This document shows positions 13,698 to 24,722 of a stretch of DNA of 24,726 nucleotides, piece after piece. The notes below the pieces were generated by a model, which saw only the letters and a program-made list of their open reading frames with translations, had not been told where the DNA came from and searched no databases. Source of the DNA: Candidatus Woesearchaeota archaeon (GTDB lineage: Archaea; Nanobdellota; Nanobdellia; Woesearchaeales; SKGA01); NCBI GenBank assembly GCA_016926395.1, contig JAFGOT010000020.1, positions 1-24,726 of the forward strand. Reading direction: 5' to 3'. Each line of letters starts with the position of its first letter. Position 1 is the stretch's first letter. Made by a program: the position numbers and the translations under genes.

Positions 13698-14363
13698 ATG
13701 CGCATAAAAGAGATCTCTTTAGATAATAGACCTAGAGAAAGAATGGAAAAGCAAGGAGCATCAGTACTTTCAGATGCAGAACTATTAGCAGTCATTTTAC
13801 AAAAAGGAACAAGAGAAGAAAATGTTATTGATATGTCGCATAGATTGATTTCTAAATATGGTGTCGATAAATTGTCATTTTGTAGCTTGAATGAATTGCA
13901 AGAAATTAAAGGGATTGGAAAAGCTAAAGCTTCTCAGATTTTAGCATTGTTTGAATTTAATAAAAGACATACTTTGTCTAAGCAAAACGGTAAACCAATA
14001 AAATCTGCAAAAGATGTTTATGACTATTGTTCTCCTAAACTTGTTGGAACAGACAAAGAACATTTCATGATTTTACATTTAGATACTCGTAATAGAGTAA
14101 TCAAAGATGAAATTGTATCAGTTGGTACTTTGAATAGTTCTTTGATACATCCTCGTGAAGTCTTTAAATCAGCAATCAAAGAAAGTGCAAACTCAGTAAT
14201 CTTAATTCATAATCATCCATCCGGAGTTGTCGAACCATCTGATGAAGATATTAAAATAACGGATGTTTTGATTAAATCTGGAGAATTATTATCTATAAAA
14301 GTACTTGATCATGTAATAGTTGGAAGCGAAGGATATTATAGCTTTAACGAGAGAAGAGATTAA
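13698..14363 (+). CDS. radC: RadC family protein (JAB/MPN domain)
   Basis: RPRER...G...LSDAELLA.IL..GT, HhH IKGIGKAKA, KEHF..L.LD..N.VI, GTLN.SLIHPREVF..AI...A..VIL.HNHPSG..EPS..D, LDHVIVG. Confidence 0.95.
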   Translation: MRIKEISLDNRPRERMEKQGASVLSDAELLAVILQKGTREENVIDMSHRLISKYGVDKLSFCSLNELQEIKGIGKAKASQILALFEFNKRHTLSKQNGKPIKSAKDVYDYCSPKLVGTDKEHFMILHLDTRNRVIKDEIVSVGTLNSSLIHPREVFKSAIKESANSVILIHNHPSGVVEPSDEDIKITDVLIKSGELLSIKVLDHVIVGSEGYYSFNERRD

Positions 14364-15835
14364 CTCTCTGTTGGATTTAAAGTTTTATTAAATTCTTTTG
14401 CACCCGTTATGATCTGATTTGAAATTTTCTTCAGTCTCTTACTTATTTTTTCATCCAGATTAGTTCCTGACTTTAATGTGATTTTTATCTGATCAGGCGA
14501 ATATGAAGGTTTACCTAATTCAATCAACTTTGCAGTAAGTAAATCTGCATCTTTTGATGCCCAATCACTTAATGTTTCAACTTCAAAATGAGTTTTTATC
14601 TGTTGGTAGTTTGAGATTATAAATTCTCTTTCACAAGGAAGAATACCTTCACAAAAAATATTAAATGGTATAACTGAAAGTAATTCATGGGGTGTTATTG
14701 AAGACTTGGTTATTTCACTCCATAAAACTGAATCTGAATAGTCGTAGCCCAACTTAAACCACTCTAAAGCATTATAACATTTTTTTAGATTTTCATTAGA
14801 AAAACTTTGATTAAAAGGTAGTGTGTAAGTCTCACTATTTAACAAATCAAGAGGAACTATTCGAATAATTGCTTCTGAACTTATTTCAACACTATTTTTT
14901 ATGTCTTTTAGGAGACTTTTAGCAGTTTGAAATGTTTCTGTTTTTATAATATAAACTCCAAATCTTGCATAAATAGGCATTTGTGTTGTTCCACCTGACA
15001 TACCCAATCTTGAAAACTTATGAAGATACTCTTTCAGGTTATTTCTATCCGTTGGATTAGTGTTATTTGTAAAAAGAACAAAAGTATTAGATGACTTTGC
15101 TTTTTTAGTAATCTCTTGATTTAATTTTTTTATTGTTTCTTCAGTAATGCCATACGTCGATAGTTTTCCTTCTTTAATAATCTTAATTAAAGTTTCATGC
15201 AAGTTCTTGTTTTGATGAAATTTATCTTTGATTTCAAAAAACTGTAAATCTTTGTAATAATTTGTAATAAAATTAATAATAACTTCTTTAACTTCTTTCT
15301 CAGTAATATTCTCAGATAAATCAATGCTTACTTTTTTTATTATTAATTGATTGTATATCTTTGCAAAATTCTTAATATCTTTATTTACGTGTGAATATTT
15401 AATTCCTAAAGATTCCGAAATTTGTTTTATAGACTCATAATTAATTGGAGATTTATCAAGTTCCCATTTCTTACAATAATAACATAATGTAATTATATGA
15501 ACAAAATCGCTAGTTATTCCTTGAATATTACTTTTTAAAAGTGAATCTACAATTTCTTTTTCAGTAGCAGACTCATCAAACTTTCTTGGTATTTCTAACT
15601 CAGGAAGACTTTTTGCAAAAAAATCTTGAAGATTCTTTGCAACTGTCTTATAGTCATTTTTAGTTTTCTTTCTTAATTTAATATCTGAAATTATATCTTT
15701 CATAGAAAGACCAGTAGCTCCAATTAAAATTCCAAAGATAGTTAAAGAGATTTCTTTATAGATTCCTGCAGGAGCTAAAAGAATAACTAAAACTTCAACA
15801 ATTACCAAAATAATAAAAGATATTAAAACAATCAA
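14360..15835 (-). CDS. Hypothetical protein with two N-terminal TM helices and a large soluble domain
   Basis: 491-codon ORF. TTG start overlaps the hsdS TGA (TTGA) with a GGGGAG SD-like sequence upstream. Residues 2-22 and 30-44 are hydrophobic. Confidence 0.8.
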   Translation of the reverse strand: MIVLISFIILVIVEVLVILLAPAGIYKEISLTIFGILIGATGLSMKDIISDIKLRKKTKNDYKTVAKNLQDFFAKSLPELEIPRKFDESATEKEIVDSLLKSNIQGITSDFVHIITLCYYCKKWELDKSPINYESIKQISESLGIKYSHVNKDIKNFAKIYNQLIIKKVSIDLSENITEKEVKEVIINFITNYYKDLQFFEIKDKFHQNKNLHETLIKIIKEGKLSTYGITEETIKKLNQEITKKAKSSNTFVLFTNNTNPTDRNNLKEYLHKFSRLGMSGGTTQMPIYARFGVYIIKTETFQTAKSLLKDIKNSVEISSEAIIRIVPLDLLNSETYTLPFNQSFSNENLKKCYNALEWFKLGYDYSDSVLWSEITKSSITPHELLSVIPFNIFCEGILPCEREFIISNYQQIKTHFEVETLSDWASKDADLLTAKLIELGKPSYSPDQIKITLKSGTNLDEKISKRLKKISNQIITGAKEFNKTLNPTES

Positions 15836-17004
15836 ACCAACTCCCCCTTAAACGCTTTTTGCATCAATGCATCAAATAACGTGTTTATTTCTTCAGTTGA
15901 AGATTGTTGTTTGGATTGGATTGATTCAATAAGTTGAACTTTCTTTGCAAACTCTTCTTGGAGTGGAAGAGGTGGGACTGATAAAGAAACGTTTTCAACT
16001 GTTTTTTTACTTATTTCTTTAAAAGTTGCTCCTGTCCCAATTGAATTTAGATAATCTTTTCTGGTTAACAACCAAACATAAAGATAGACTGGATGGATTA
16101 ATTCATCATTACAAATTATGTTTTTAAAGCCTTGATTTGAACACATTTCATTTCCCGCAATAGCAACTTTACCTATTGGGGCTCTAGTTGTTAACATAAC
16201 TGTTCCGATTGGGAAAAGTCTGTTACCAATAGATTTTAATCCTGCATCTGATATTTTTCTTTGAGTTTCATAATAGTAATAATTATCTCCATCAATTAAT
16301 TCTGCAGGAGTTATCCAATTTATTTTTCCATTCCAAAATTCTTTATTGGTTGTTTTTGGTGTTGAACCAGAAACGACTTCTCCTATCTCTGAAATTGTTT
16401 TAACACCCCATCCTTTCTCCTTTTTCACAGGGTCGCCAAACATTTCATAAAATAATGATTGAATTATCTTTTGTGTTTCTTTGTTTGTTTCTTCTCGTTT
16501 TTGTTTGAGATTCTTTGCTTTTTCAAGGATTGAAACGATTTGTTTTTGGACTGGGAGAGGTGGGAGAGGAAAGGAAAAATTACGAATATCTTTTAATGAA
16601 AGGAAATTTTGAGTTCCACCCCTTTTATTTTTTTTAATATATCTTTTGAATAAACTACTGCTCAATACATGTTTCAAGAATTTATTATAGATAATATCTT
16701 GATTAAATTTTATCAATGCTACATTTTTAATTGCGAACTCTCTTTCTTTTTTAACAATGATTGGATTTCCTATTGTTCCAATCATGGGCATGATTATATC
16801 TCCATCATCAACAAAGGATCTTTTATTAACTGCATCAAAATCTTCTTTGGAGATTAGATTTGCTGTTGAAAAATCAATTTTTCCATCTTTAACATTTTTT
16901 GAGGTAATTAAAGGATAACCTTCTTGTCTATACTTAGGGGAATCGTGTGTTCCATCACGAACATCACAAATATCATTTAGCTTTACTATTTTAGAATTTT
17001 TCAT
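15832..17004 (-). CDS. hsdS: Type I restriction-modification specificity subunit
   Basis: Two TRDs, each followed by a conserved region (PLPPLPVQKQIV; VPPLPLQEEFA...L...LMQKAFKGEL), plus GSTPKT and GATFKEIS. Start is ATG 17004 (GAGG SD) or 17013. Confidence 0.95.
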   Translation of the reverse strand: MKNSKIVKLNDICDVRDGTHDSPKYRQEGYPLITSKNVKDGKIDFSTANLISKEDFDAVNKRSFVDDGDIIMPMIGTIGNPIIVKKEREFAIKNVALIKFNQDIIYNKFLKHVLSSSLFKRYIKKNKRGGTQNFLSLKDIRNFSFPLPPLPVQKQIVSILEKAKNLKQKREETNKETQKIIQSLFYEMFGDPVKKEKGWGVKTISEIGEVVSGSTPKTTNKEFWNGKINWITPAELIDGDNYYYYETQRKISDAGLKSIGNRLFPIGTVMLTTRAPIGKVAIAGNEMCSNQGFKNIICNDELIHPVYLYVWLLTRKDYLNSIGTGATFKEISKKTVENVSLSVPPLPLQEEFAKKVQLIESIQSKQQSSTEEINTLFDALMQKAFKGELV

Positions 17005-17671
17005 TTTGAACATCCTCTTGATTAATTACTTTAGTAACATCATTAATTATTACTTCAAAAGCTTTAAGCTCTTCTGAGAAATATTTAAGATAAATTTTAT
17101 CTAACTCATTAAAAATTGAATCTGTATCGTTTTGTAATAAGAAAATATCGTCATTTATCTTGTGCAATAACCTGTTATTCTCTTTATCAAAAAATGTTTT
17201 ATGTTTGGGATTATTACACCCTTGTGTAAAAAGAACATCTTCTTCTTTTATTTCAGAAAGTGATTTCCAAAACTCTTTAGCAATATGTAGTTTTGAAGGA
17301 AGTGCTTTAATACTATATGCGCAATCAATACAGAATAATTCATTTTTATTCACATCTTCAGACTTAACAAAGTATTTACTAATAATTGGATATATCTCAA
17401 AAGCTAGGGATTCACATTTCTTTGCAAATTTTTCTAACTGTTCTTTTGTGATTGTTGCTCTAAAAATTGAATGAGATTCATTTGTATCTTGGTTTTTTAC
17501 ATGGATATCAAAAAAAGCCCCTTCTTCAACTTCTTTTGTATAAGCAGTTATGTGAAATTTGTTTTCTTTCTTATATGTTATTGGAATAACAAGACCGTCT
17601 TTTGAATTAGCCAAAGCTACAAAGTCCTCATAATTCTCTGAAATAGGAAAATAAATCTTGTCTTTGCTCAT
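16991..17671 (-). CDS. Hypothetical protein (226 aa) inside the hsd operon
   Basis: ATGA overlap with the upstream gene and overlap with the hsdS start; no recognised family. Confidence 0.78.
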   Translation of the reverse strand: MSKDKIYFPISENYEDFVALANSKDGLVIPITYKKENKFHITAYTKEVEEGAFFDIHVKNQDTNESHSIFRATITKEQLEKFAKKCESLAFEIYPIISKYFVKSEDVNKNELFCIDCAYSIKALPSKLHIAKEFWKSLSEIKEEDVLFTQGCNNPKHKTFFDKENNRLLHKINDDIFLLQNDTDSIFNELDKIYLKYFSEELKAFEVIINDVTKVINQEDVQNEKF

Positions 17672-18576
17672 TTTGAAACCTCATTTAATAACAAACAAAT
17701 CGTCATAACTTCATTCATTTGAAATCTTGCTGTTTCTCTTAGAAATTCAGAATCATCAAATTTTTCATTCGGACTATGTGATTTAAGTTTACTTCTCAAC
17801 CCATATACGCAAGCAATTTGTGATTTAATCTTTCCTTTAAACTCGGGCAATGTAAATATTCCTTTAAAATTATTTTTTTGAAAGTCTGCATAGTTATCTA
17901 CTGCAGATTTATCCATATTGCCAGTTTTAATCTTTAGAAATCTTTCAAGAGTTAAATAAGAATTTTCAATAGAACCTTTAAAATCTTTTTGAGTAAAATT
18001 TATGATAGAGTTAGTGAAGTACTCATTAGTCTTTTTGTCTTTAATTAAATCAAAAAACTGTTCTTTTGTTTGTTCTTCTTGCTCGTTTAATTTATTCTCA
18101 ATATATAAACGATCTAAAATTTTATTGTATGAAAATTGATAAGGTATTTTATGATAATCTAACAAGTTATTAAATGCTTTAATAAATTCAACTAAAATGT
18201 TACTTGTATCGTATCTTCTGGAACTAAAACTTCCAGTAACATGTTGTTCATATCTTTGAATTCTCTCAGACATACAATCAACATATAACTCTATACAAGA
18301 AAATAACTCATTTAGCTCACAATAAATAAAATAGTTTTCAAAATTATTCAAATGTTTTGAATCGATTAAGTATTTTAATTTAGATTTCATTAAATCTAAA
18401 GTATCGTTTGAATAAGTTCCAGTTATTACTGCAACACTAGAGGTATCTAATTGATTTAAATCAAAATCGTTGAAAAGCATAAGAATTTTCTTTCTTATTT
18501 CTACTGGAAAATAATCTTTATTTAATTCAGAATTTTTCTTTCTTTCTTTAAATAAACCTCTAGGAATTAATTTCAT
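17668..18576 (-). CDS. Putative HEPN-domain protein (AbiJ/Abi_C-like)
   Basis: All-helical C-terminus with DFKGSIENSYLTLERFLK (conserved-E helix, E211) and R261-SKLKS-H267 (Rx5H). Starts 3 nt after the hsdM stop. Family call by motif only. Confidence 0.62.
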   Translation of the reverse strand: MKLIPRGLFKERKKNSELNKDYFPVEIRKKILMLFNDFDLNQLDTSSVAVITGTYSNDTLDLMKSKLKYLIDSKHLNNFENYFIYCELNELFSCIELYVDCMSERIQRYEQHVTGSFSSRRYDTSNILVEFIKAFNNLLDYHKIPYQFSYNKILDRLYIENKLNEQEEQTKEQFFDLIKDKKTNEYFTNSIINFTQKDFKGSIENSYLTLERFLKIKTGNMDKSAVDNYADFQKNNFKGIFTLPEFKGKIKSQIACVYGLRSKLKSHSPNEKFDDSEFLRETARFQMNEVMTICLLLNEVSK

Positions 18577-18579
18577 CTT

Positions 18580-20058
18580 CTAAACCATCCTCTTCAGCTC
18601 TTCCAGCTCTTTCTTTATCTCATCTTCTGCTTTCATCACTCTTTCAATTATGTCTTTTGGATCATCATATTCGATGTCTTCGTGAGCTAACTCCCTATAA
18701 CGAGAAATTGATAAAATGTAATCATTCTCTTTAATTTCAGTGAATGGGACAACTATTGATTTTTCTCCGACTTTTTTCAAAGAATATGATTCAATAATGT
18801 CTGGAATGTCTCCTTTTCCATCAATGAAATCTCTTTTATCATCTAACGAGAAACCATCTGCAGTCATTTCATAGAACCAAACATTATCTGTTGTTCCACC
18901 TTTACTAAATATCAAAATAGAAGTTGCAACCCCTGAATATGGTTTAAACACTCCTGAAGGCATTGAAATGACTCCTTCCAATGAACATTTTTCCATCAAT
19001 AACTTTCGAACATCTTTGTGGGCATTTGAAGAACCAAACAATACGCCGTTTGGAACAATAACTGCACATCGTCCACCAATCTCAAGCAAATTATAGATTA
19101 ATTCTAAGAACAACAATTCTGTTTTTGTTGTCTTAACCATGAATTCATCATTAATGTCTGATTTATCTATCGAACCAGTAAACGGGGGATTAGCTAAGAT
19201 AACATCATAATCTGATTTAATGTCAAATGATTTAGATAAAGTATCTTTTCGTACAATATTAGGTTTCTCTAAACCATGTAACAACATATTCATTGAGGCA
19301 ATTCTTGCCATAGTTCCATCAAAATCAAAACCAAAAAAGGATTTGCTTTTCAGAAATTCCCAATGTTCCTTTCCAACAATCTTATCTCCTATTAGATTAT
19401 ATGGAACCCCTTGATCATCGTGTTTAATCATTTCTTTAGAGGTGTTTTTCAAAAGGACATGTTGATATGAATTGACTAAAAAACCGCCTGTTCCACACGC
19501 AGGGTCTAATACTCGCTCTCCCAATTTTGGATCAATGATATCAACCATCATTCGGATAATATGTCTTGGTGTTCGAAATTGACCTGCACGTCCTGCTTGA
19601 TTTAACTCCGATAATAAAAATTCATAAATGTCTCCTTGCGTATCTTGGTTTTGAGCAGTAATGTTTAACTCATCAATAATAGAAATTGCATCTTGCAAAA
19701 GAGATGGTTTTGGTATCATAAATACAGCATCTTTCATTTGCTCTGTAAATGAATCATCTCCTCGTTTTATGCCTTTAAAGAAAGGAAATACAACATCTCG
19801 AACATGAACTAATAAATCTTCAGCATTAAAGTGTTTGAAGTGTGACCATTTGCAATCGTCATGATCTTTAAAGATAGAGTTATATTCTTCTCCTTTTGCT
19901 TGTGCTCTTTTCATATGAAGATTATCCAAATCTTCAAGTCGTTTCATAAAAATCAAGTAAGATACTTGTTCTATTGCCGTAAGTGGGTTTGCAAGTCCTC
20001 CTGCCCAAAATCTATCCCATAATTTGTTTATTTTTGATTTAAGTTCTGCGGTTAACAT
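18580..20058 (-). CDS. hsdM: Type I R-M N6-adenine methyltransferase subunit
   Basis: GQFRTPRHII..MV, DPACGTGGFL (motif I), ANPPF (motif IV). N-terminus LKSKINKLWDRFWAGG..NPL..IEQ..YL.F.KRL is typical of EcoAI/EcoEI-like HsdM. Confidence 0.97.
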   Translation of the reverse strand: MLTAELKSKINKLWDRFWAGGLANPLTAIEQVSYLIFMKRLEDLDNLHMKRAQAKGEEYNSIFKDHDDCKWSHFKHFNAEDLLVHVRDVVFPFFKGIKRGDDSFTEQMKDAVFMIPKPSLLQDAISIIDELNITAQNQDTQGDIYEFLLSELNQAGRAGQFRTPRHIIRMMVDIIDPKLGERVLDPACGTGGFLVNSYQHVLLKNTSKEMIKHDDQGVPYNLIGDKIVGKEHWEFLKSKSFFGFDFDGTMARIASMNMLLHGLEKPNIVRKDTLSKSFDIKSDYDVILANPPFTGSIDKSDINDEFMVKTTKTELLFLELIYNLLEIGGRCAVIVPNGVLFGSSNAHKDVRKLLMEKCSLEGVISMPSGVFKPYSGVATSILIFSKGGTTDNVWFYEMTADGFSLDDKRDFIDGKGDIPDIIESYSLKKVGEKSIVVPFTEIKENDYILSISRYRELAHEDIEYDDPKDIIERVMKAEDEIKKELEELKRMV

Positions 20059-20059
20059 T

Positions 20060-20929
20060 TTATTTTACCCCATTAAGTTTGCTTAACATATCTATAGCTT
20101 CTTTCTCAAACTTTGAGAATGCAAACCATTTTTTTCCAAGATCTTTTAATGATGCTCCAAAATGATATACTTCTTTAGAATCTATAATAAGAAATCTATC
20201 GTGAGAGTTGTTAAATTGCTTTACAAGAATCGGTTCATGTTGCGCATTGAATTTTTCAACATCTAATTTTAATTGTTTGGAAATAGTTTTTGTATATATG
20301 TGAACAGAAACGCCTTTTTTTCGTTTAGAAAAAAAAGTTAAAACACTTTCATCTACATAATTATCAATTAACACGATTTGTTTTTTTGCTTCTTTAACCA
20401 AATCACAAACAAATACATATGCATCGAATACCTGTCCATCATAAAATATGCCTTGCTTTTTCTCACTGGTTTCAAGAGCTTTGAAAACTTTCTCAAATTT
20501 ATCATCATGCTCTAATTGTTTTAACTCGACTCTGTCTAATCTTTGAAAAACAGAAGCATTTTGAGCGATAAATTTACGCATTGCAACAAAGGCATTCATT
20601 ATGTTGATACTTACTTGGATTGCTGTTTTGCTTTTTAAAACTCCTGACAACATAGAAACGCCTTGTTCTGTGAAAACATAGGGTAAATATCGCCTTCCTC
20701 CCCACTCCGAACTTGAGGTAACAATTTGTGACCTCAAGATTTCCACCTCTTTTTCAGTCAATTGAAACATGAAACTTTCAGGAAATCTCTCTGAATTTCT
20801 TTTAACAGCTTGATTTAAAGCTTTTACAGGCACATTATACAGATTTGCTATATCGCTGTCCACGATAACTTGCATTCCTCTAATAGTATGAATCCTGCGT
20901 TTTATATCTGTAACTATTAACTCATTCAT
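20060..20929 (-). CDS. ORF6N (KilA-N-like) DNA-binding domain fused to a PLD-like C-terminal domain
   Basis: IRG.QVIVDSDIA.LY.V..KALNQAVKRN.ERFP..FMFQLT..E (ORF6N); C-terminal HDRFLIID...YHFGASLKDLG. GGAGGT SD at 20937-20942 gives start ATG 20929. Confidence 0.85.
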   Translation of the reverse strand: MNELIVTDIKRRIHTIRGMQVIVDSDIANLYNVPVKALNQAVKRNSERFPESFMFQLTEKEVEILRSQIVTSSSEWGGRRYLPYVFTEQGVSMLSGVLKSKTAIQVSINIMNAFVAMRKFIAQNASVFQRLDRVELKQLEHDDKFEKVFKALETSEKKQGIFYDGQVFDAYVFVCDLVKEAKKQIVLIDNYVDESVLTFFSKRKKGVSVHIYTKTISKQLKLDVEKFNAQHEPILVKQFNNSHDRFLIIDSKEVYHFGASLKDLGKKWFAFSKFEKEAIDMLSKLNGVK

Positions 20930-20957
20930 TGGACATACCTCCAATTCCTATAATGGC

Positions 20958-21010
20958 ATCACAGTTTGTGATACCTTTTCCAAACAGGTCGATTTCGACC
21001 CCTTTATAAG
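20958..21010 (-). promoter_or_regulatory. Promoter of the ORF6N-hsdM-hsdS operon: TATA box with two operator-like palindromes
   Basis: CTTATAAA at 21003-21010 (minus); GGTCGA-TT-TCGACC at 20987-21000; ATCACA-GTT-TGTGAT at 20958-20972. Confidence 0.6.
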
Positions 21011-21013
21011 TAG

Positions 21014-21424
21014 TCATTCTTCAACCTCATAATCAAGAACATCTGTTGGAACTATTGTTTTATCTCCTAGTTTTGCCTGTTCTTTTCTTCTTTCTTCTAG
21101 TGCTTTGTCAAGTGTAACTTTCATTTTTTCTAAAAAATCAACAGAGACATTCTTGCTCAAAATATGCTTTTGACTTCCTAAATCTAATTGCCACAGAAAT
21201 TTATCTTCAGAAATAGAATATTCAAAAGAATGTTTACCAGTTGCAGGAACTCCTTTGTCTTTTCGCAGAGTTCCAGGATGAAGCATGAACTCTAACTTCT
21301 TTTCAATTAGTCCTTTAATGAGTTTATTTGGACTAATACTTTCACGCTCACAGAAGTCATTAAGTTTCATCTTAAGATCTCTTTCGAGCTTTACTGATGT
21401 TGTAGTCCATTCACTTTCTGCCAT
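21014..21424 (-). CDS. Ribbon-helix-helix (CopG/MetJ-like) domain protein with unknown C-terminal domain
   Basis: TTTSVKL (strand), ERDLKMKLNDFCERE (helix A), SPNKLIKGLIEKKL (helix B). Own TATA box TTTATAAA at 21448-21455, 23 nt before the ATG. Confidence 0.75.
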   Translation of the reverse strand: MAESEWTTTSVKLERDLKMKLNDFCERESISPNKLIKGLIEKKLEFMLHPGTLRKDKGVPATGKHSFEYSISEDKFLWQLDLGSQKHILSKNVSVDFLEKMKVTLDKALEERRKEQAKLGDKTIVPTDVLDYEVEE

Positions 21425-21469
21425 AGAAAAGAGTAAAAGCTAACTTATTTATAAATATTTCTAAAATAT

Positions 21470-21498
21470 GGTTTACAAATTAGTTTATTTTGTAAACC
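21470..21498. repeat. Perfect 10-bp inverted repeat with 9-nt spacer at the hsdR stop (terminator or operator)
   Basis: GGTTTACAAA (21470-21479) and TTTGTAAACC (21489-21498). Confidence 0.8.
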
Positions 21499-24302
21499 TA
21501 TGTTTCGGCAAATACTTCTTTTTCTAGTTTTTGACACAACCCAACTAACTCTTTTAATTCGTGTTCCTCAAACAAAGGCATAGGTGCGTTTACACCAAAA
21601 TTCGTAAAAGGCGCTTCAAAGAAATCGCCAAATTCAATATGTTTTTTCCGCACAAATACAGTTTGTAGTGTTCTTAAGAAATTAATTTGATTTGCAGAAT
21701 ACACTTCATTATGTCTTGCTATAAAATTTCTAAATTCTTCATCAATCTTTTCTTCAGGAGTCTTTAACTTTTTCACATTTAATATGTGCTTCAAGAATTC
21801 TGTTAACGTTCCTTTTTGCTCATAGATTTTTTGAAGATTCTTCTCATTGATGTAAAGGTCAGCAGAATTCAAATTTTCTTCTAATTTTTCTACATCTTCT
21901 CCATAAATAGGGCTTCCTTCTTTAATTTTCATAACGGTTGGATCGGAGGTTGCAAGGTCATAGATTTTTTCTTCAACTTGCTTTTTATAGACATCAACAT
22001 ACTCTTCTTTGCCGTCAGGAGCGAATTCAATAAGTTTTCTTTGTTGAACAACATCATCAATATCAAGAATAATCATCGGTCTTGGTTCTTTTCTTTTGTA
22101 GGGCATTAATGGAGCGAATTCTTTTTCAAGCGTAGATATATTATCATAAGTTATTTCTTGCCAATACCCTTCTGTTAATACTTTATCAAGTAAAGTTTTT
22201 TTATCTTTAACTTGTTGCAAAGTTACTGGCAAACATCTAAGCCATTCAGTGATTTTTTCCTTTGCTCTTTCAAATTGTTTTTCATCACCTTTAGCAAGAG
22301 CAAGTTTTAATTCATCACACTTCAAAACAAACGATGCAATCATCGGGTTAACATCTTGTTGATATCTCATCAAAGGCATAATGTGTTTTTTCAAGTAGTT
22401 AGAATAATCTAAACCAACACCGTTCCAGAAATTTTCTTGGTTTACTTGTTCGATGTGATGGATATTTTCTTTAATACTTATGGACTCTTTTGGAAGCTGA
22501 TTAACAGAATCAAGAATTTTCTTTTGATTTTCCTTCATTCGAGGAAGATCTTTATTTTGATCAAAATATTTTACAAGTTCGACTCTTACTTTCATAATTC
22601 GTGTAGTAACAGCATCTGTTGCACTTGCTTCCTTTCCTTTTGGATGTAAATCAAAATACTCAAAATTTCTCCAAAAGTCAAAAATAAGAAAATTTTCTTT
22701 TTTACCAAAAGGCAACCATGAACGATTTTTACAAACAGAATCATGACGAGTTCCTCTACCAACCATCTGCCAGAACTTAATTTTTGAAAAGACTGGTTTT
22801 GCAAAAACAAGGTTGCAGACCTCAGGAACATCAACTCCTGTATCAAGCATATCTACTGAAATTGCGATTCGAGGGAAACTTTCTTTTTTGAATTCTTTTA
22901 GCAAGTCATCTGCTCTGCTATCTTCTGAAGTAATAACTCGAGTTAATCGTCCTTTGTATTCAGGATATAACTTTTCAAATGCTTCCCATATTCTTTTAGC
23001 ATGTTTTTTACTTACTGCAAAAATAATTGTTTTAGCTGGAAGAGTTCCTGATTCATCAAGAAGACAGTTTTCCATAAATTCTTTAACGATTACTTCATTT
23101 GTTCCAAGAACTGCAATCTTCTTTTCAATATCTGTTCCTTCCCAATTGAGTTCTTCTTCATCCATTCCTTCTTCGAGTAATTTCTTCTTCACAGCATCTG
23201 GTAAATCTCCTTTTCCCACACCTTCCATTTGAAAATGTGTTTGCACACCAGTTACTCGATAATCGCAAAGATAGTTTTCTTCTATTGCTTTATCATATGT
23301 GTAAAGAGCAGTGGGTTTTCCATCGTTACATTCGAAGAATCTGAAAGTATCCCTATCAATCCAATCTGAAGGTGTTGCAGTAAGTCCAATTTGAATCGCA
23401 TCAAAATATGTAAAAACTTCTTTCCATTTGTTATATATTGAACGATGACATTCATCTGCTATAATTACATCAAAAGAACCTATGGAAAATTCTTGAAAAC
23501 ATTCCATAAATGTTTGAATAGTAGAAACATGAATTTTTGAGTTTTTATCAAGTTCTCCTGCATAAATTTTTGATTTTGATTCAGGAGGTATGTGTTCTTT
23601 AAATGCATCAAATGCTTGATCTCGCAAAGCTTTTCTATCTGCAAGAAATAAAATTCTTTGAGCCTTTTTTCCTCTAAGAAGCACATCAACTAAAGACATT
23701 GCAGTTCTTGTTTTCCCACAACCTGTCGCCATCACTAACAAAGATTTTCTTTTTCCACGTTCAATATTATCAACAACTCTCTTAATGGCTTCAATTTGAT
23801 AAGGCCTATTTGTAATGTCTTCTTTTATTTTTAATTCTGACAAATTTTCTTTTGCAGAATTTTGAAATCTCAGTCGTTCTAAGTCTTCTTGAGTGTGAAA
23901 TCCCATCACTTTTCTTGGAGATTCATGAGGATAATTCCAGAAAATATTTTGATAACCATTTGAAAGATAAATAAAAACATCTTTGCCCGTTTGCTTTTTT
24001 ATATCCATTGCATATTGCTCAGCTTGCTTTTGACCGATAATAGGATCTTTGGTTGTTCGCTTAGCTTCAATTATTGCAAGTGGATCTCCATTAGAATCTA
24101 GGAGAAGATAGTCAACATATTTACTTTCTTCTTCATTTTTAAGAGTTTCAGAAACATCTTTATAGATTTTTTTTGTGAAATCAGATTGTTTTGTATCGAT
24201 TTCCACTCGAACATTAAATTTATCTTTAACATTCCAACTAGCACTAAGTAATTGTACATCAATTTTTTCAAGTCTTGTTTTCCATTCAGGCAAATCTTCC
24301 AT
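21498..24302 (-). CDS. hsdR: Type I restriction endonuclease/translocase subunit (EcoAI/EcoEI-like)
   Basis: Nuclease motif VDYLL....PLAIIEAK; helicase motifs RPYQ, MATGCGKT, FLADR, DECH, GLTATP, SVDMLDTGVD, FWQMVGRGTR; EcoEI-like C-terminal region (SANQINFL..L). Confidence 0.96.
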   Translation of the reverse strand: MEDLPEWKTRLEKIDVQLLSASWNVKDKFNVRVEIDTKQSDFTKKIYKDVSETLKNEEESKYVDYLLLDSNGDPLAIIEAKRTTKDPIIGQKQAEQYAMDIKKQTGKDVFIYLSNGYQNIFWNYPHESPRKVMGFHTQEDLERLRFQNSAKENLSELKIKEDITNRPYQIEAIKRVVDNIERGKRKSLLVMATGCGKTRTAMSLVDVLLRGKKAQRILFLADRKALRDQAFDAFKEHIPPESKSKIYAGELDKNSKIHVSTIQTFMECFQEFSIGSFDVIIADECHRSIYNKWKEVFTYFDAIQIGLTATPSDWIDRDTFRFFECNDGKPTALYTYDKAIEENYLCDYRVTGVQTHFQMEGVGKGDLPDAVKKKLLEEGMDEEELNWEGTDIEKKIAVLGTNEVIVKEFMENCLLDESGTLPAKTIIFAVSKKHAKRIWEAFEKLYPEYKGRLTRVITSEDSRADDLLKEFKKESFPRIAISVDMLDTGVDVPEVCNLVFAKPVFSKIKFWQMVGRGTRHDSVCKNRSWLPFGKKENFLIFDFWRNFEYFDLHPKGKEASATDAVTTRIMKVRVELVKYFDQNKDLPRMKENQKKILDSVNQLPKESISIKENIHHIEQVNQENFWNGVGLDYSNYLKKHIMPLMRYQQDVNPMIASFVLKCDELKLALAKGDEKQFERAKEKITEWLRCLPVTLQQVKDKKTLLDKVLTEGYWQEITYDNISTLEKEFAPLMPYKRKEPRPMIILDIDDVVQQRKLIEFAPDGKEEYVDVYKKQVEEKIYDLATSDPTVMKIKEGSPIYGEDVEKLEENLNSADLYINEKNLQKIYEQKGTLTEFLKHILNVKKLKTPEEKIDEEFRNFIARHNEVYSANQINFLRTLQTVFVRKKHIEFGDFFEAPFTNFGVNAPMPLFEEHELKELVGLCQKLEKEVFAET

Positions 24303-24377
24303 CGTATCTCATTTATAAATAATTTTAAGTAAAATATAAAGTTTAAGGTTTTAAAAGCGTGTCCGTTGTCACTTTAG

Positions 24378-24471
24378 AGTTCATTACCTGAAAAATAGGG
24401 GGAGAGACCAACCAAAGTAAACACGCTAATTTTAAACATAGTGAGTCCCCTCGTTTTTTAACTAATGAACT
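24378..24471 (-). other. ~94-nt imperfect fold-back upstream of hsdR (structured leader or small RNA candidate)
   Basis: Closing stem AGTTCATTA (24378-24386) / TAATGAACT (24463-24471), with nested AAAAA/TTTTT and AGGGG/CCCCT blocks. Confidence 0.45.
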
Positions 24472-24572
24472 GAAGAGTGGTAAATTGTTGATTGATTTAT
24501 ACATGTGTCTTAATCTTTGTATAATAATATAAAGAAAGAAACTTATTTTATTATTAGTTAGATATAAGACTG

Positions 24573-24722
24573 TCATTTTTTCCTCTTTTTAGGCTTATTC
24601 CAATATGGACTCTTGCACTTAGGACAAATAACAGGATCTTCATTTACTTTAATCCTAGGAATCCATTCATGATTACATCGTTCACATCGATATCCTTTTA
24701 CTGTAATCATAATCTTAGCCAT
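24573..24722 (-). CDS. Small zinc-ribbon protein (49 aa), absent from the ORF track
   Basis: MAKIMITVKGYRCERCNHEWIPRIKVNEDPVICPKCKSPYWNKPKKRKK: two CxxC knuckles and a basic tail. The start may extend beyond the window edge. Confidence 0.85.
   Translation of the reverse strand: MAKIMITVKGYRCERCNHEWIPRIKVNEDPVICPKCKSPYWNKPKKRKK

Follow-up and report, generated by a model that had tools for sequence, protein, structure and literature searches.

Does a restriction-modification (R-M) locus that is crowded with additional genes form one defence system of several layers, or does it carry defence genes that act on their own? The question is posed by a type I R-M locus at positions 24302 down to 14360 of contig JAFGOT010000020.1, from a Candidatus Woesearchaeota archaeon (assembly GCA_016926395.1). 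The window analysed is the whole 24.7-kb contig; the assembly has a size of 1.02 Mb and a GC content of about 30% and, judged by marker genes, is 82.5% complete. Eight open reading frames (ORFs), all on the minus strand, follow one another in the order hsdR, a gene for a ribbon-helix-helix (RHH)-like protein, an ORF6N-domain gene, hsdM, genes for proteins of 302 and 226 amino acids (aa), hsdS and a gene for a 491-aa protein. A first-pass annotation of this DNA had given the gene order and coordinates correctly, and had seen in them a candidate multilayer system with five accessory genes, in a combination that it did not recognise. The locus is better read, with a probability of about 0.7, as a mosaic of independent embedded cassettes on an RHH-controlled type I R-M scaffold than as one integrated system, because the cargo families have independent distributions, the slots that hold them are exchanged exactly, known defence genes stand in the equivalent slots of related loci, and the GC content of the cargo is lower than that of the scaffold.

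An R-M scaffold with three slots

Matches to Pfam, PADLOC and NCBIfam profiles confirm the type I R-M identity of the three hsd genes. The product of hsdR (21498-24302) is a 934-aa restriction subunit of the EcoAI/EcoEI-like kind (Pfam ResIII 1.9e-42, Helicase_C, EcoEI_R_C 3.6e-18 and HSDR_N; PADLOC REase_I 2.1e-150), that of hsdM (18580-20058) a 492-aa methyltransferase (N6_Mtase 5.2e-64, HsdM_N 1.5e-13; MTase_I 3.2e-170), and that of hsdS (15832-17013) a specificity subunit with two target-recognition domains, matched by Methylase_S in two stretches (8.7e-41) and by Specificity_I over residues 9-392 (7.8e-75). The RHH gene is separated from hsdR by 73 nt and from the six genes that follow it by 69 nt, and each of these three units has a TATA-like box of its own. 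For the six-gene block this is CTTATAAAG at 21003-21010, between the stop codon of the RHH gene and the ORF6N gene; together with two palindromes it makes up the region 20958-21010 (minus strand), which was read directly in the sequence.

The six genes downstream of this box are chained, as had been noticed at first pass, by gaps of 1-3 nt or overlaps of 4-23 nt. The ORF6N gene and hsdM are 1 nt apart (TAA-A-ATG), hsdM and the 302-aa gene 3 nt (TAG-AAG-ATG), the 302-aa and 226-aa genes share an ATGA overlap, the 226-aa gene and hsdS overlap by 23 nt, or by 14 nt if hsdS starts at its second ATG, and hsdS and the 491-aa gene share a TTGA overlap. The 226-aa gene is thus translationally coupled on both sides.

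How the cargo relates to the hsd genes can be seen from two sister scaffolds, one in a genome of a different family of the same order (G220, locus L062) and one in a genome of the same genus as the window (G015). Relative to the window, HsdR and HsdM of the former are 92% and 94.5% identical in amino acid sequence, and about 85% at the DNA level; in the latter HsdR is 94%, the RHH protein 93% and the 226-aa protein 97% identical. The scaffold segment 21018-24726 is matched in the genome of the other family at about 85% DNA identity, compared with only 65-71% for the housekeeping genes of genomes from the same genus, and this comparison suggests that the R-M scaffold moved horizontally, and recently.

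Homology at the DNA level to the sister scaffolds breaks off at 21014-21018, 20064, 18584 and 15836, each no more than a few bases from a gene boundary, and within hsdS it is confined to the conserved central and C-terminal spacers. Three slots are delimited in this way. Slot 1, between the RHH gene and hsdM, holds the ORF6N gene in the window, the Shedu gene SduA (PADLOC 3e-28) in G220 and an uncharacterised gene, present as an 87-aa fragment at a contig end, in G015. Slot 2, between hsdM and hsdS, holds the 302-aa and 226-aa genes in the window, a PDC-S19/DUF3644 gene (1e-131) in G220 and the 226-aa gene in G015, where the rest of the slot falls into an assembly gap. This gap, which lies between contigs C85 and C57, is also why hsdM was not found there, so that the failure to see the 302-aa gene in that genome is not informative. 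Slot 3, behind hsdS, is occupied by the 491-aa gene in the window, by a gene for a PIN protein in G220 and by genes for 286-aa and 136-aa proteins in G015, the 136-aa product being 55% identical to the PIN protein. In more distant loci of the subfamily the same slots contain genes for an OLD nuclease, a Bro-N protein, Schlafen/AlbA_2, a nucleotidyltransferase, a HEPN protein, an M48 peptidase, DUF3800/PDC-M04A and an LmuA/PDC-M48B-like protein. The new cargo of the window has a GC content of 24.5-26.9%, against 31-34% for the scaffold. The window and its sister scaffolds therefore amount to a natural swap experiment, in which the same three positions receive known defence genes (Shedu, PDC-S19, PIN) or unknown ones.

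A single co-evolving system of five genes was considered and rejected, and the multilayer reading of the first-pass annotation is not supported: each cargo family occurs without the others, and near-identical scaffolds carry different cargo in the same slots. The additional genes might also have no selected function and be passengers left by mobile elements or viruses, namely an anti-repressor-type regulator, a membrane protein and orphan ORFs. The ORF6N protein does match phage anti-repressor PHROGs (2.3e-27), the 226-aa gene is close to an orphan, and the GC content of the cargo is below that of the scaffold. All four cargo families are nevertheless intact ORFs with invariant motifs and are tightly coupled in translation, genuine defence genes, Shedu and OLD among them, occupy the equivalent slots, and no relative of the 302-aa or the 491-aa family was found in the viral contigs searched. 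Taken together, this makes the passenger explanation very improbable.

Crowded hsd loci are seen elsewhere in DPANN archaea. One (L005, 5858-17755) has the order hsdR, Bro-N, a HEPN gene of the 302-aa family, a 211-aa ORF, OLD, a 168-aa ORF, hsdS, a 298-aa ORF, hsdM and a 158-aa ORF, and another (L027, 2941-9532) the order hsdM, ORF6N, ORFs of 164, 133 and 371 aa, Schlafen and hsdS. An unnamed family of about 215 aa also lies inside hsd operons, after the RHH gene in L068 (10043-10702) and after the HEPN gene in L005 (10914-11549); its two members are 45% identical.

The RHH gene and its candidate operator

The gene directly behind hsdR (21014-21424) encodes a 136-aa protein from a family with 31 cluster representatives. 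No Pfam family matches it. A profile built from 28 sequences and compared with the PDB gave as its best matches the RHH domains of the CopG family, DinJ and PutA at positions 4-56, all weak (E 0.11-1.2), and one Atlas cluster annotated as RHH_5 scored 0.85. No helix-turn-helix (HTH) family was matched, either in Pfam or in the profile comparison with the PDB, so the Xre-type HTH fold of C proteins was not found.

Of 401 genomes sampled from the phylum, 10 have the gene at full length, in every case just downstream of hsdR, and this hsdR is always of the same subfamily. The simplest loci (L063 and L064) read hsdR, RHH, hsdS, hsdM, with 4-nt overlaps; in the others as many as three small ORFs precede the RHH gene and as many as four variable ones follow it. 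Given this conservation with hsdR in ten genomes out of ten, we rejected the view that the RHH gene encodes an effector or belongs to a set of five accessory genes. Because it always stands just after the hsdR of this subfamily, behind a conserved dyad next to a TATA box, we count it with the core, as a regulatory part, and not with the cargo; the accessory genes in the window are then four and not five.

In the window the dyad, GGTTTACAAA-N9-TTTGTAAACC (21470-21498), lies directly 3' of the hsdR stop codon, and the TATA box of the RHH gene follows 14 nt downstream. The contig has no second copy of it, and 100 shuffled sequences gave no match. Nine of the ten loci inspected have, 4-27 nt upstream of the RHH TATA box, either a related dyad or two 8-bp boxes in tandem; in L069 there is only an imperfect version. 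The operator-like boxes at this position (L006 and L062-L069) are of the GGTTWACC type with a period of about 11 bp, as in GGTTAACC-taa-GGTTAACC in L006, GTCAACC-tt-GGTTGAC in L063 and GGTTTACC-taa-GGTTTACC in L067. Repressors of the RHH type, MetJ and Arc among them, recognise short palindromic boxes that are arranged in tandem at a spacing of roughly one turn of the helix. Judging from sequence and gene context, the dyad is a probable operator for the RHH protein, and the protein itself is probably the conserved fourth gene product and transcriptional controller of this R-M subfamily.

It would seem that the RHH protein binds the dyad beside its own TATA box and so controls the modification and specificity genes downstream; by analogy with the C proteins of type II systems it may autoregulate its own promoter, and hsdS and hsdM with it. 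An RHH controller with metbox-like tandem operators may run this type I R-M subfamily of DPANN archaea, a mode of control of which we know no description for type I or for archaeal R-M systems. The two palindromes at 20958-21000 had been linked to the RHH protein at first pass. They lie within the segment that is swapped with slot 1 (20065-21017, compared with L062 and L026) and are not conserved in the sister scaffolds, which places them in the slot-1 cassette and outside the conserved part of the R-M locus.

The cargo of the three slots

The slot-1 gene (20060-20944) encodes a protein with an ORF6N domain (Pfam 1.8e-34) that matches the PADLOC family PDC-S05 (PDLC04869) over its full length, with residues 10-291 aligned to model positions 13-301 of 306 at 1.5e-128. 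Its start is more likely the ATG at 20929, which has GGAGG 8 nt upstream and agrees with homologues beginning with MN. Eleven copies of the family are present in eight genomes of the genus (L027-L036). The gene is autonomous, since only one of these eleven lies in an hsd operon, and it can be present several times in genomes of about 1 Mb, with three copies in G129 and a tandem pair in L035.

Near the C-terminus a motif HDRFLIID..YHxGASxKD is invariant in the eleven copies (H248-D-R250-FLII-D255 ... G263-A-S265-x-K267). It resembles the phospholipase D (PLD) signature HxK(x)4D(x)6G(S/T)xN with arginine in place of the catalytic lysine, and residues 178-259 give weak PADLOC matches to MkoB (0.0015) and NsnC (1e-4). 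No Pfam PLDc match was obtained, phmmer found no match in the PDB, and hhalign of the ORF6N alignment against one PLDc_2 domain gave nothing, a comparison that is uninformative because its template was a single sequence. A PLD-like C-terminal domain is therefore plausible but unproven. The idea of effector-type genes within the hsdM/hsdS operon holds for the PDC-S05 protein as a whole, the 302-aa HEPN protein and the membrane protein, while the nuclease-like reading of the first rests on the motif and the weak profile matches.

Genes nested in type I R-M, BREX and DISARM loci were the source from which PDC-S05, among other candidates, was proposed (Payne et al, 2024, bioRxiv 10.1101/2024.01.29.577857). 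In a cold-seep study a PDC-S05 representative in E. coli is reported to have lowered the plating of T7 and T5 about 1000-fold and also to have protected against T4 (bioRxiv 10.1101/2024.09.26.614923). Nothing specific that links ORF6N to type I restriction or to PLD was found in the literature searched.

The first gene of slot 2 (17668-18576), with a GC content of 24.5%, encodes the 302-aa protein, for which no match was found in Pfam, PADLOC, NCBIfam or PHROG. The 12 homologues are 36-75% identical to it, so that about 13 members are known, from DPANN archaea and one bacterium. In an AlphaFold2 (AF2) model (pLDDT 79) the N-terminal half consists of helices and a beta-hairpin; the N-terminal 165 residues are conserved and have no assigned fold. 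Structural alignment of residues ~176-302 with VIA-align gave TT1696 (1ufb) as the best match, with a Z-score of 11.4 and 117 residues aligned at a root-mean-square deviation of 3.6, followed by AF0298 (2hsb, 10.8), the sacsin HEPN domain (3o10, 10.4), ST0689 (1wol, 10.0) and the C-terminal domain of AbiA (8oz7, 9.1). LsoA, RnlA, Csm6 and AbiV follow at lower scores, and HEPN proteins make up at least 12 of the top 20 rows. Foldseek with the same model found nothing significant in the PDB, and hhalign of the HEPN alignment against one DUF4145 protein gave nothing, the single-sequence template again making this comparison uninformative. E211 is invariant in the domain, and so is the R-x5-H motif formed by R261 and H267; across 13 sequences with identities as low as 36%, R261, S262, S266 and H267 never vary. 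The C-terminal part of the protein is thus, as modelled, a HEPN fold that carries the Rx4-6H motif.

Five genomic contexts of this family are readable (the window and L002-L005; the contexts of 8 database homologues are outside this count), and four of the five are type I R-M operons. Besides the window these are a Micrarchaeota metagenome-assembled genome (MAG) with hsdM, the 302-aa family gene, hsdS and hsdR, a Caldisericum MAG with hsdM, Schlafen and the family gene, and a Woesearchaeota MAG with a crowded hsd locus. The fifth, a Nanoarchaeota copy (L004), stands alone, outside any R-M locus. Other than this the family is very rare, with no member in 400 other genomes of the phylum and one weak partial match in 300 genomes from the Micrarchaeota side.

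These contexts bear on an alternative in which the locus is an integrated system like that of PrrC. The HEPN protein, perhaps with the 226-aa protein as its partner, would be kept silent by the HsdM/HsdS complex, a virus that inhibits R-M would release it as an RNase, and the remaining cargo would provide further back-up layers dependent on R-M. PrrC sets a precedent, being confined almost entirely to type I R-M loci, the rarity of the 302-aa family elsewhere fits such a dependence, and so does the gene's position, starting 3 nt after the hsdM stop codon and coupled to hsdS through the 226-aa gene. The association also recurs with different partners, the hsdM beside the gene in L002 and L003 being only about 24% identical to that of the window. 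Against this, the protein has no ATPase or known regulatory domain and matches no PrrC or RloC model, the Nanoarchaeota homologue does without an R-M locus, the position of the gene relative to hsdM and hsdS varies among loci in what is a small set of five contexts, and the R-M system of G220 holds PDC-S19 in the same slot and hence does not need the 302-aa protein. A PrrC-like arrangement consequently appears unlikely, and independent cassettes remain the preferred reading of slot 2.

The second gene of the slot (16991-17671) encodes a 226-aa protein that is nearly an orphan, with only three database homologues in addition to the copies in L006 and G015; an Atlas search with it was uninformative. 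Because the residues CxDC...C...H are invariant in its relatives down to 27% identity, it is a real gene, with a probable zinc site. In L006 it lies directly after the RHH gene and no HEPN gene is present, and the 302-aa family occurs in L002-L005 without the 226-aa and 491-aa genes. The HEPN and 226-aa genes are therefore not an obligate pair.

This separation also weakens a second alternative, according to which the cargo consists of toxin-antitoxin or addiction modules, for instance a HEPN toxin whose antitoxin would be the 226-aa protein, that stabilise the locus or an element and have no direct part in antiviral defence. HEPN toxins are common in such pairs, the two genes overlap at ATGA, and the equivalent slots contain a nucleotidyltransferase gene of the type seen in MNT-HEPN pairs (L067) and PIN proteins (G220). 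Toxin-antitoxin and defence roles are, moreover, not mutually exclusive. As an account of the cargo this alternative seems quite unlikely.

The gene in slot 3 (14360-15835) encodes the 491-aa protein, which has 19 homologues, none with a Pfam domain and one of them from a Flavobacteriales bacterium. The first-pass description of two transmembrane helices is partly borne out by hydropathy. The N-terminus is hydrophobic in all homologues and the first helix strongly so, while the second is only moderately hydrophobic, which makes it plausible and not certain. The AF2 model (pLDDT 74) has two N-terminal helices and further helical domains, and in its centre residues 249-333 form a domain of the order beta-alpha-beta-beta-alpha-beta. 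Foldseek searches of the PDB and BFVD with this model gave nothing significant; in VIA-align the central domain matches ACT and ferredoxin-like structures (Z 9.4-7), the best being of the ACT, PII and CutA types (Z 9.4-8.7). A Cas2/VapD reading of this domain was rejected in favour of a generic ferredoxin- or ACT-like fold, Cas2 being one of many matches at a Z-score of 7.1. The family alignment shows no catalytic signature and no invariant acidic residue in 249-333. The model would suit a sensor or a membrane effector.

Homologues of the 491-aa gene stand between hsdS and hsdM in two loci (L006 and L007). In L008 the neighbours encode an HKD+Snf2 helicase, a methylase of the DrmMI/type IIG-like kind and an ABC ATPase; in L009 and L010 they are Vsr, Dcm and PDC-M33A. 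A weak DUF4145 match, which stays below the Pfam cut-off, is encoded two genes downstream in L011, and in L018 the homologue lies near a PIN_4 protein. No member was found in the four other genomes that have the 302-aa family, so the two do not co-occur outside the window. Neither the 302-aa, the 226-aa nor the 491-aa protein gave a PADLOC match, PDC-S05 being the only cargo that this search identified.

In the mosaic reading, the hsd operon of a DPANN-specific type I R-M subfamily would serve as a scaffold with three slots, into which unrelated, self-contained defence cassettes are swapped. The cassette of slot 1 would combine an ORF6N DNA-binding domain with a PLD-like C-terminal domain. Slot 2 would supply a predicted HEPN RNase acting by abortive infection, followed by a small, putatively zinc-binding protein, and slot 3 a membrane-anchored protein whose ferredoxin-like domain, of a type that binds ligands, would suit the sensor or effector role. 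Co-transcription with hsdM and hsdS would provide the cargo with expression and linkage, and each cassette most likely acts alone and not as a subunit of the R-M enzyme. What the analysis shows are gene identities, folds, conserved motifs, slot exchange and context statistics; the biochemical activities and antiviral effects of the cargo are inferred throughout.

Several points weigh against this account. The Z-scores of the HEPN fold, at 8-11, lie in a range that helical bundles may attain by chance, though the top ranks are consistently HEPN proteins. That the 302-aa family sits in hsd operons in four of five contexts, with different hsd families, could mean a real functional coupling and not mere embedding. 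The RHH assignment depends on the weak E-values of the profile comparison, the PLD-like motif has arginine for the lysine of the family and is matched by no PLD profile, and the PDC-S05 protein of the cold-seep study, for which a RhuM domain was described, may differ in architecture from that of the window. A combined proposal, with the 302-aa HEPN protein as an ATPase-less, PrrC-like guard wired to type I R-M, the 491-aa protein as a new defence effector and the RHH protein running the subfamily, is in our view doubtful.

Flanking genes and relation to known systems

Behind the 491-aa gene lies a convergent RadC/JAB-domain gene on the plus strand (13698-14363; PHROG DNA repair protein, 2.1e-38). 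The stop codons of the two genes overlap by 4 nt, which leaves no space for a terminator. A RadC/JAB gene recurs as a neighbour of this hsd locus in five genomes (the loci noted besides the window are L025, L062, L005, L067 and L032), and in G015, G220, L005 and L067 it stands next to the hsd genes. In L032 an ORF6N gene and the RadC gene overlap by 4 nt on one strand. Upstream of hsdR a 49-aa ORF with a zinc-ribbon-like CxxC...CxxC (24573-24722, minus strand) lies within a stretch conserved in G015 and G220, and a 77-aa ORF (24343-24576) that overlaps the hsdR promoter region is probably spurious. The left half of the window carries archaeal housekeeping genes, for ArgRS, SepF, FtsY, prefoldin, eIF6, ScpA, enolase and a phosphorylase. 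An archaeal, DPANN-like setting is consistent with the small assembly, its GC content of about 30% and the presence of eIF6, prefoldin, SepF and FtsY.

DPANN organisms cannot be grown alone and their defence systems are poorly known. The swap pattern marks the 302-aa HEPN and 491-aa proteins as concrete antiviral candidates that are not yet catalogued. The locus also offers a probable controller of the RHH type for an archaeal type I R-M system, along with a candidate operator at a defined position.

The regulatory part has its nearest counterpart in the C-protein controllers C.PvuII and C.Esp1396I, which are Xre-type HTH proteins of type II R-M systems. Like them, the RHH protein is a small candidate DNA-binding protein inside an R-M locus, with a dyad at its own promoter and upstream of modification genes. 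Unlike them it is RHH-like and not an HTH protein, the system is of type I, and the promoter is an archaeal one with a TATA box.

With PrrC of EcoprrI, a HEPN anticodon nuclease whose gene lies in a type IC hsd operon, and with RloC, the 302-aa protein shares its HEPN-type nature, the position of its gene next to hsdM and hsdS and the near restriction of its family to type I R-M operons. It differs from them in lacking an ABC-ATPase domain, since searches of Pfam, NCBIfam and PADLOC revealed neither a P-loop nor any ATPase family in it, and in having no sequence match to them; the sister scaffold of G220 does without it. The protein is also comparable to minimal HEPN and Abi-type effectors (TT1696, AF0298, the C-terminal domain of AbiA, LsoA/RnlA and AbiV), with which it has in common a four-helix HEPN fold, here with an invariant Rx5H; a match to the Pfam HEPN clan and an MNT partner are missing, and the 165-residue N-terminal domain is unassigned.

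The ORF6N protein of slot 1 agrees with PDC-S05 in its full-length profile match and in being a single gene, mostly standalone in the genus. Where a RhuM domain was described for the cold-seep representative, the protein of the window combines ORF6N with a PLD-like motif that has arginine for the catalytic lysine.

The locus as a whole most resembles the 'guilt-by-embedding' described for defence genes nested in type I R-M, BREX, DISARM and Hma operons (Payne et al, 2024, bioRxiv 10.1101/2024.01.29.577857), so that the combination which the first-pass annotation did not recognise is of a documented kind. In both cases genes on the same strand are nested between hsd genes, the cargo mixes known systems, catalogued candidates and unknown genes, and the cargo also occurs un-embedded. 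The present case differs in its DPANN hosts, in the conserved RHH gene, in the three defined slots, and in the 302-, 226- and 491-aa families, which are absent from PADLOC v2. Against the background of an embedding pattern that is already documented, the new elements look like the two uncatalogued families of the 302-aa and 491-aa proteins, as antiviral candidates.

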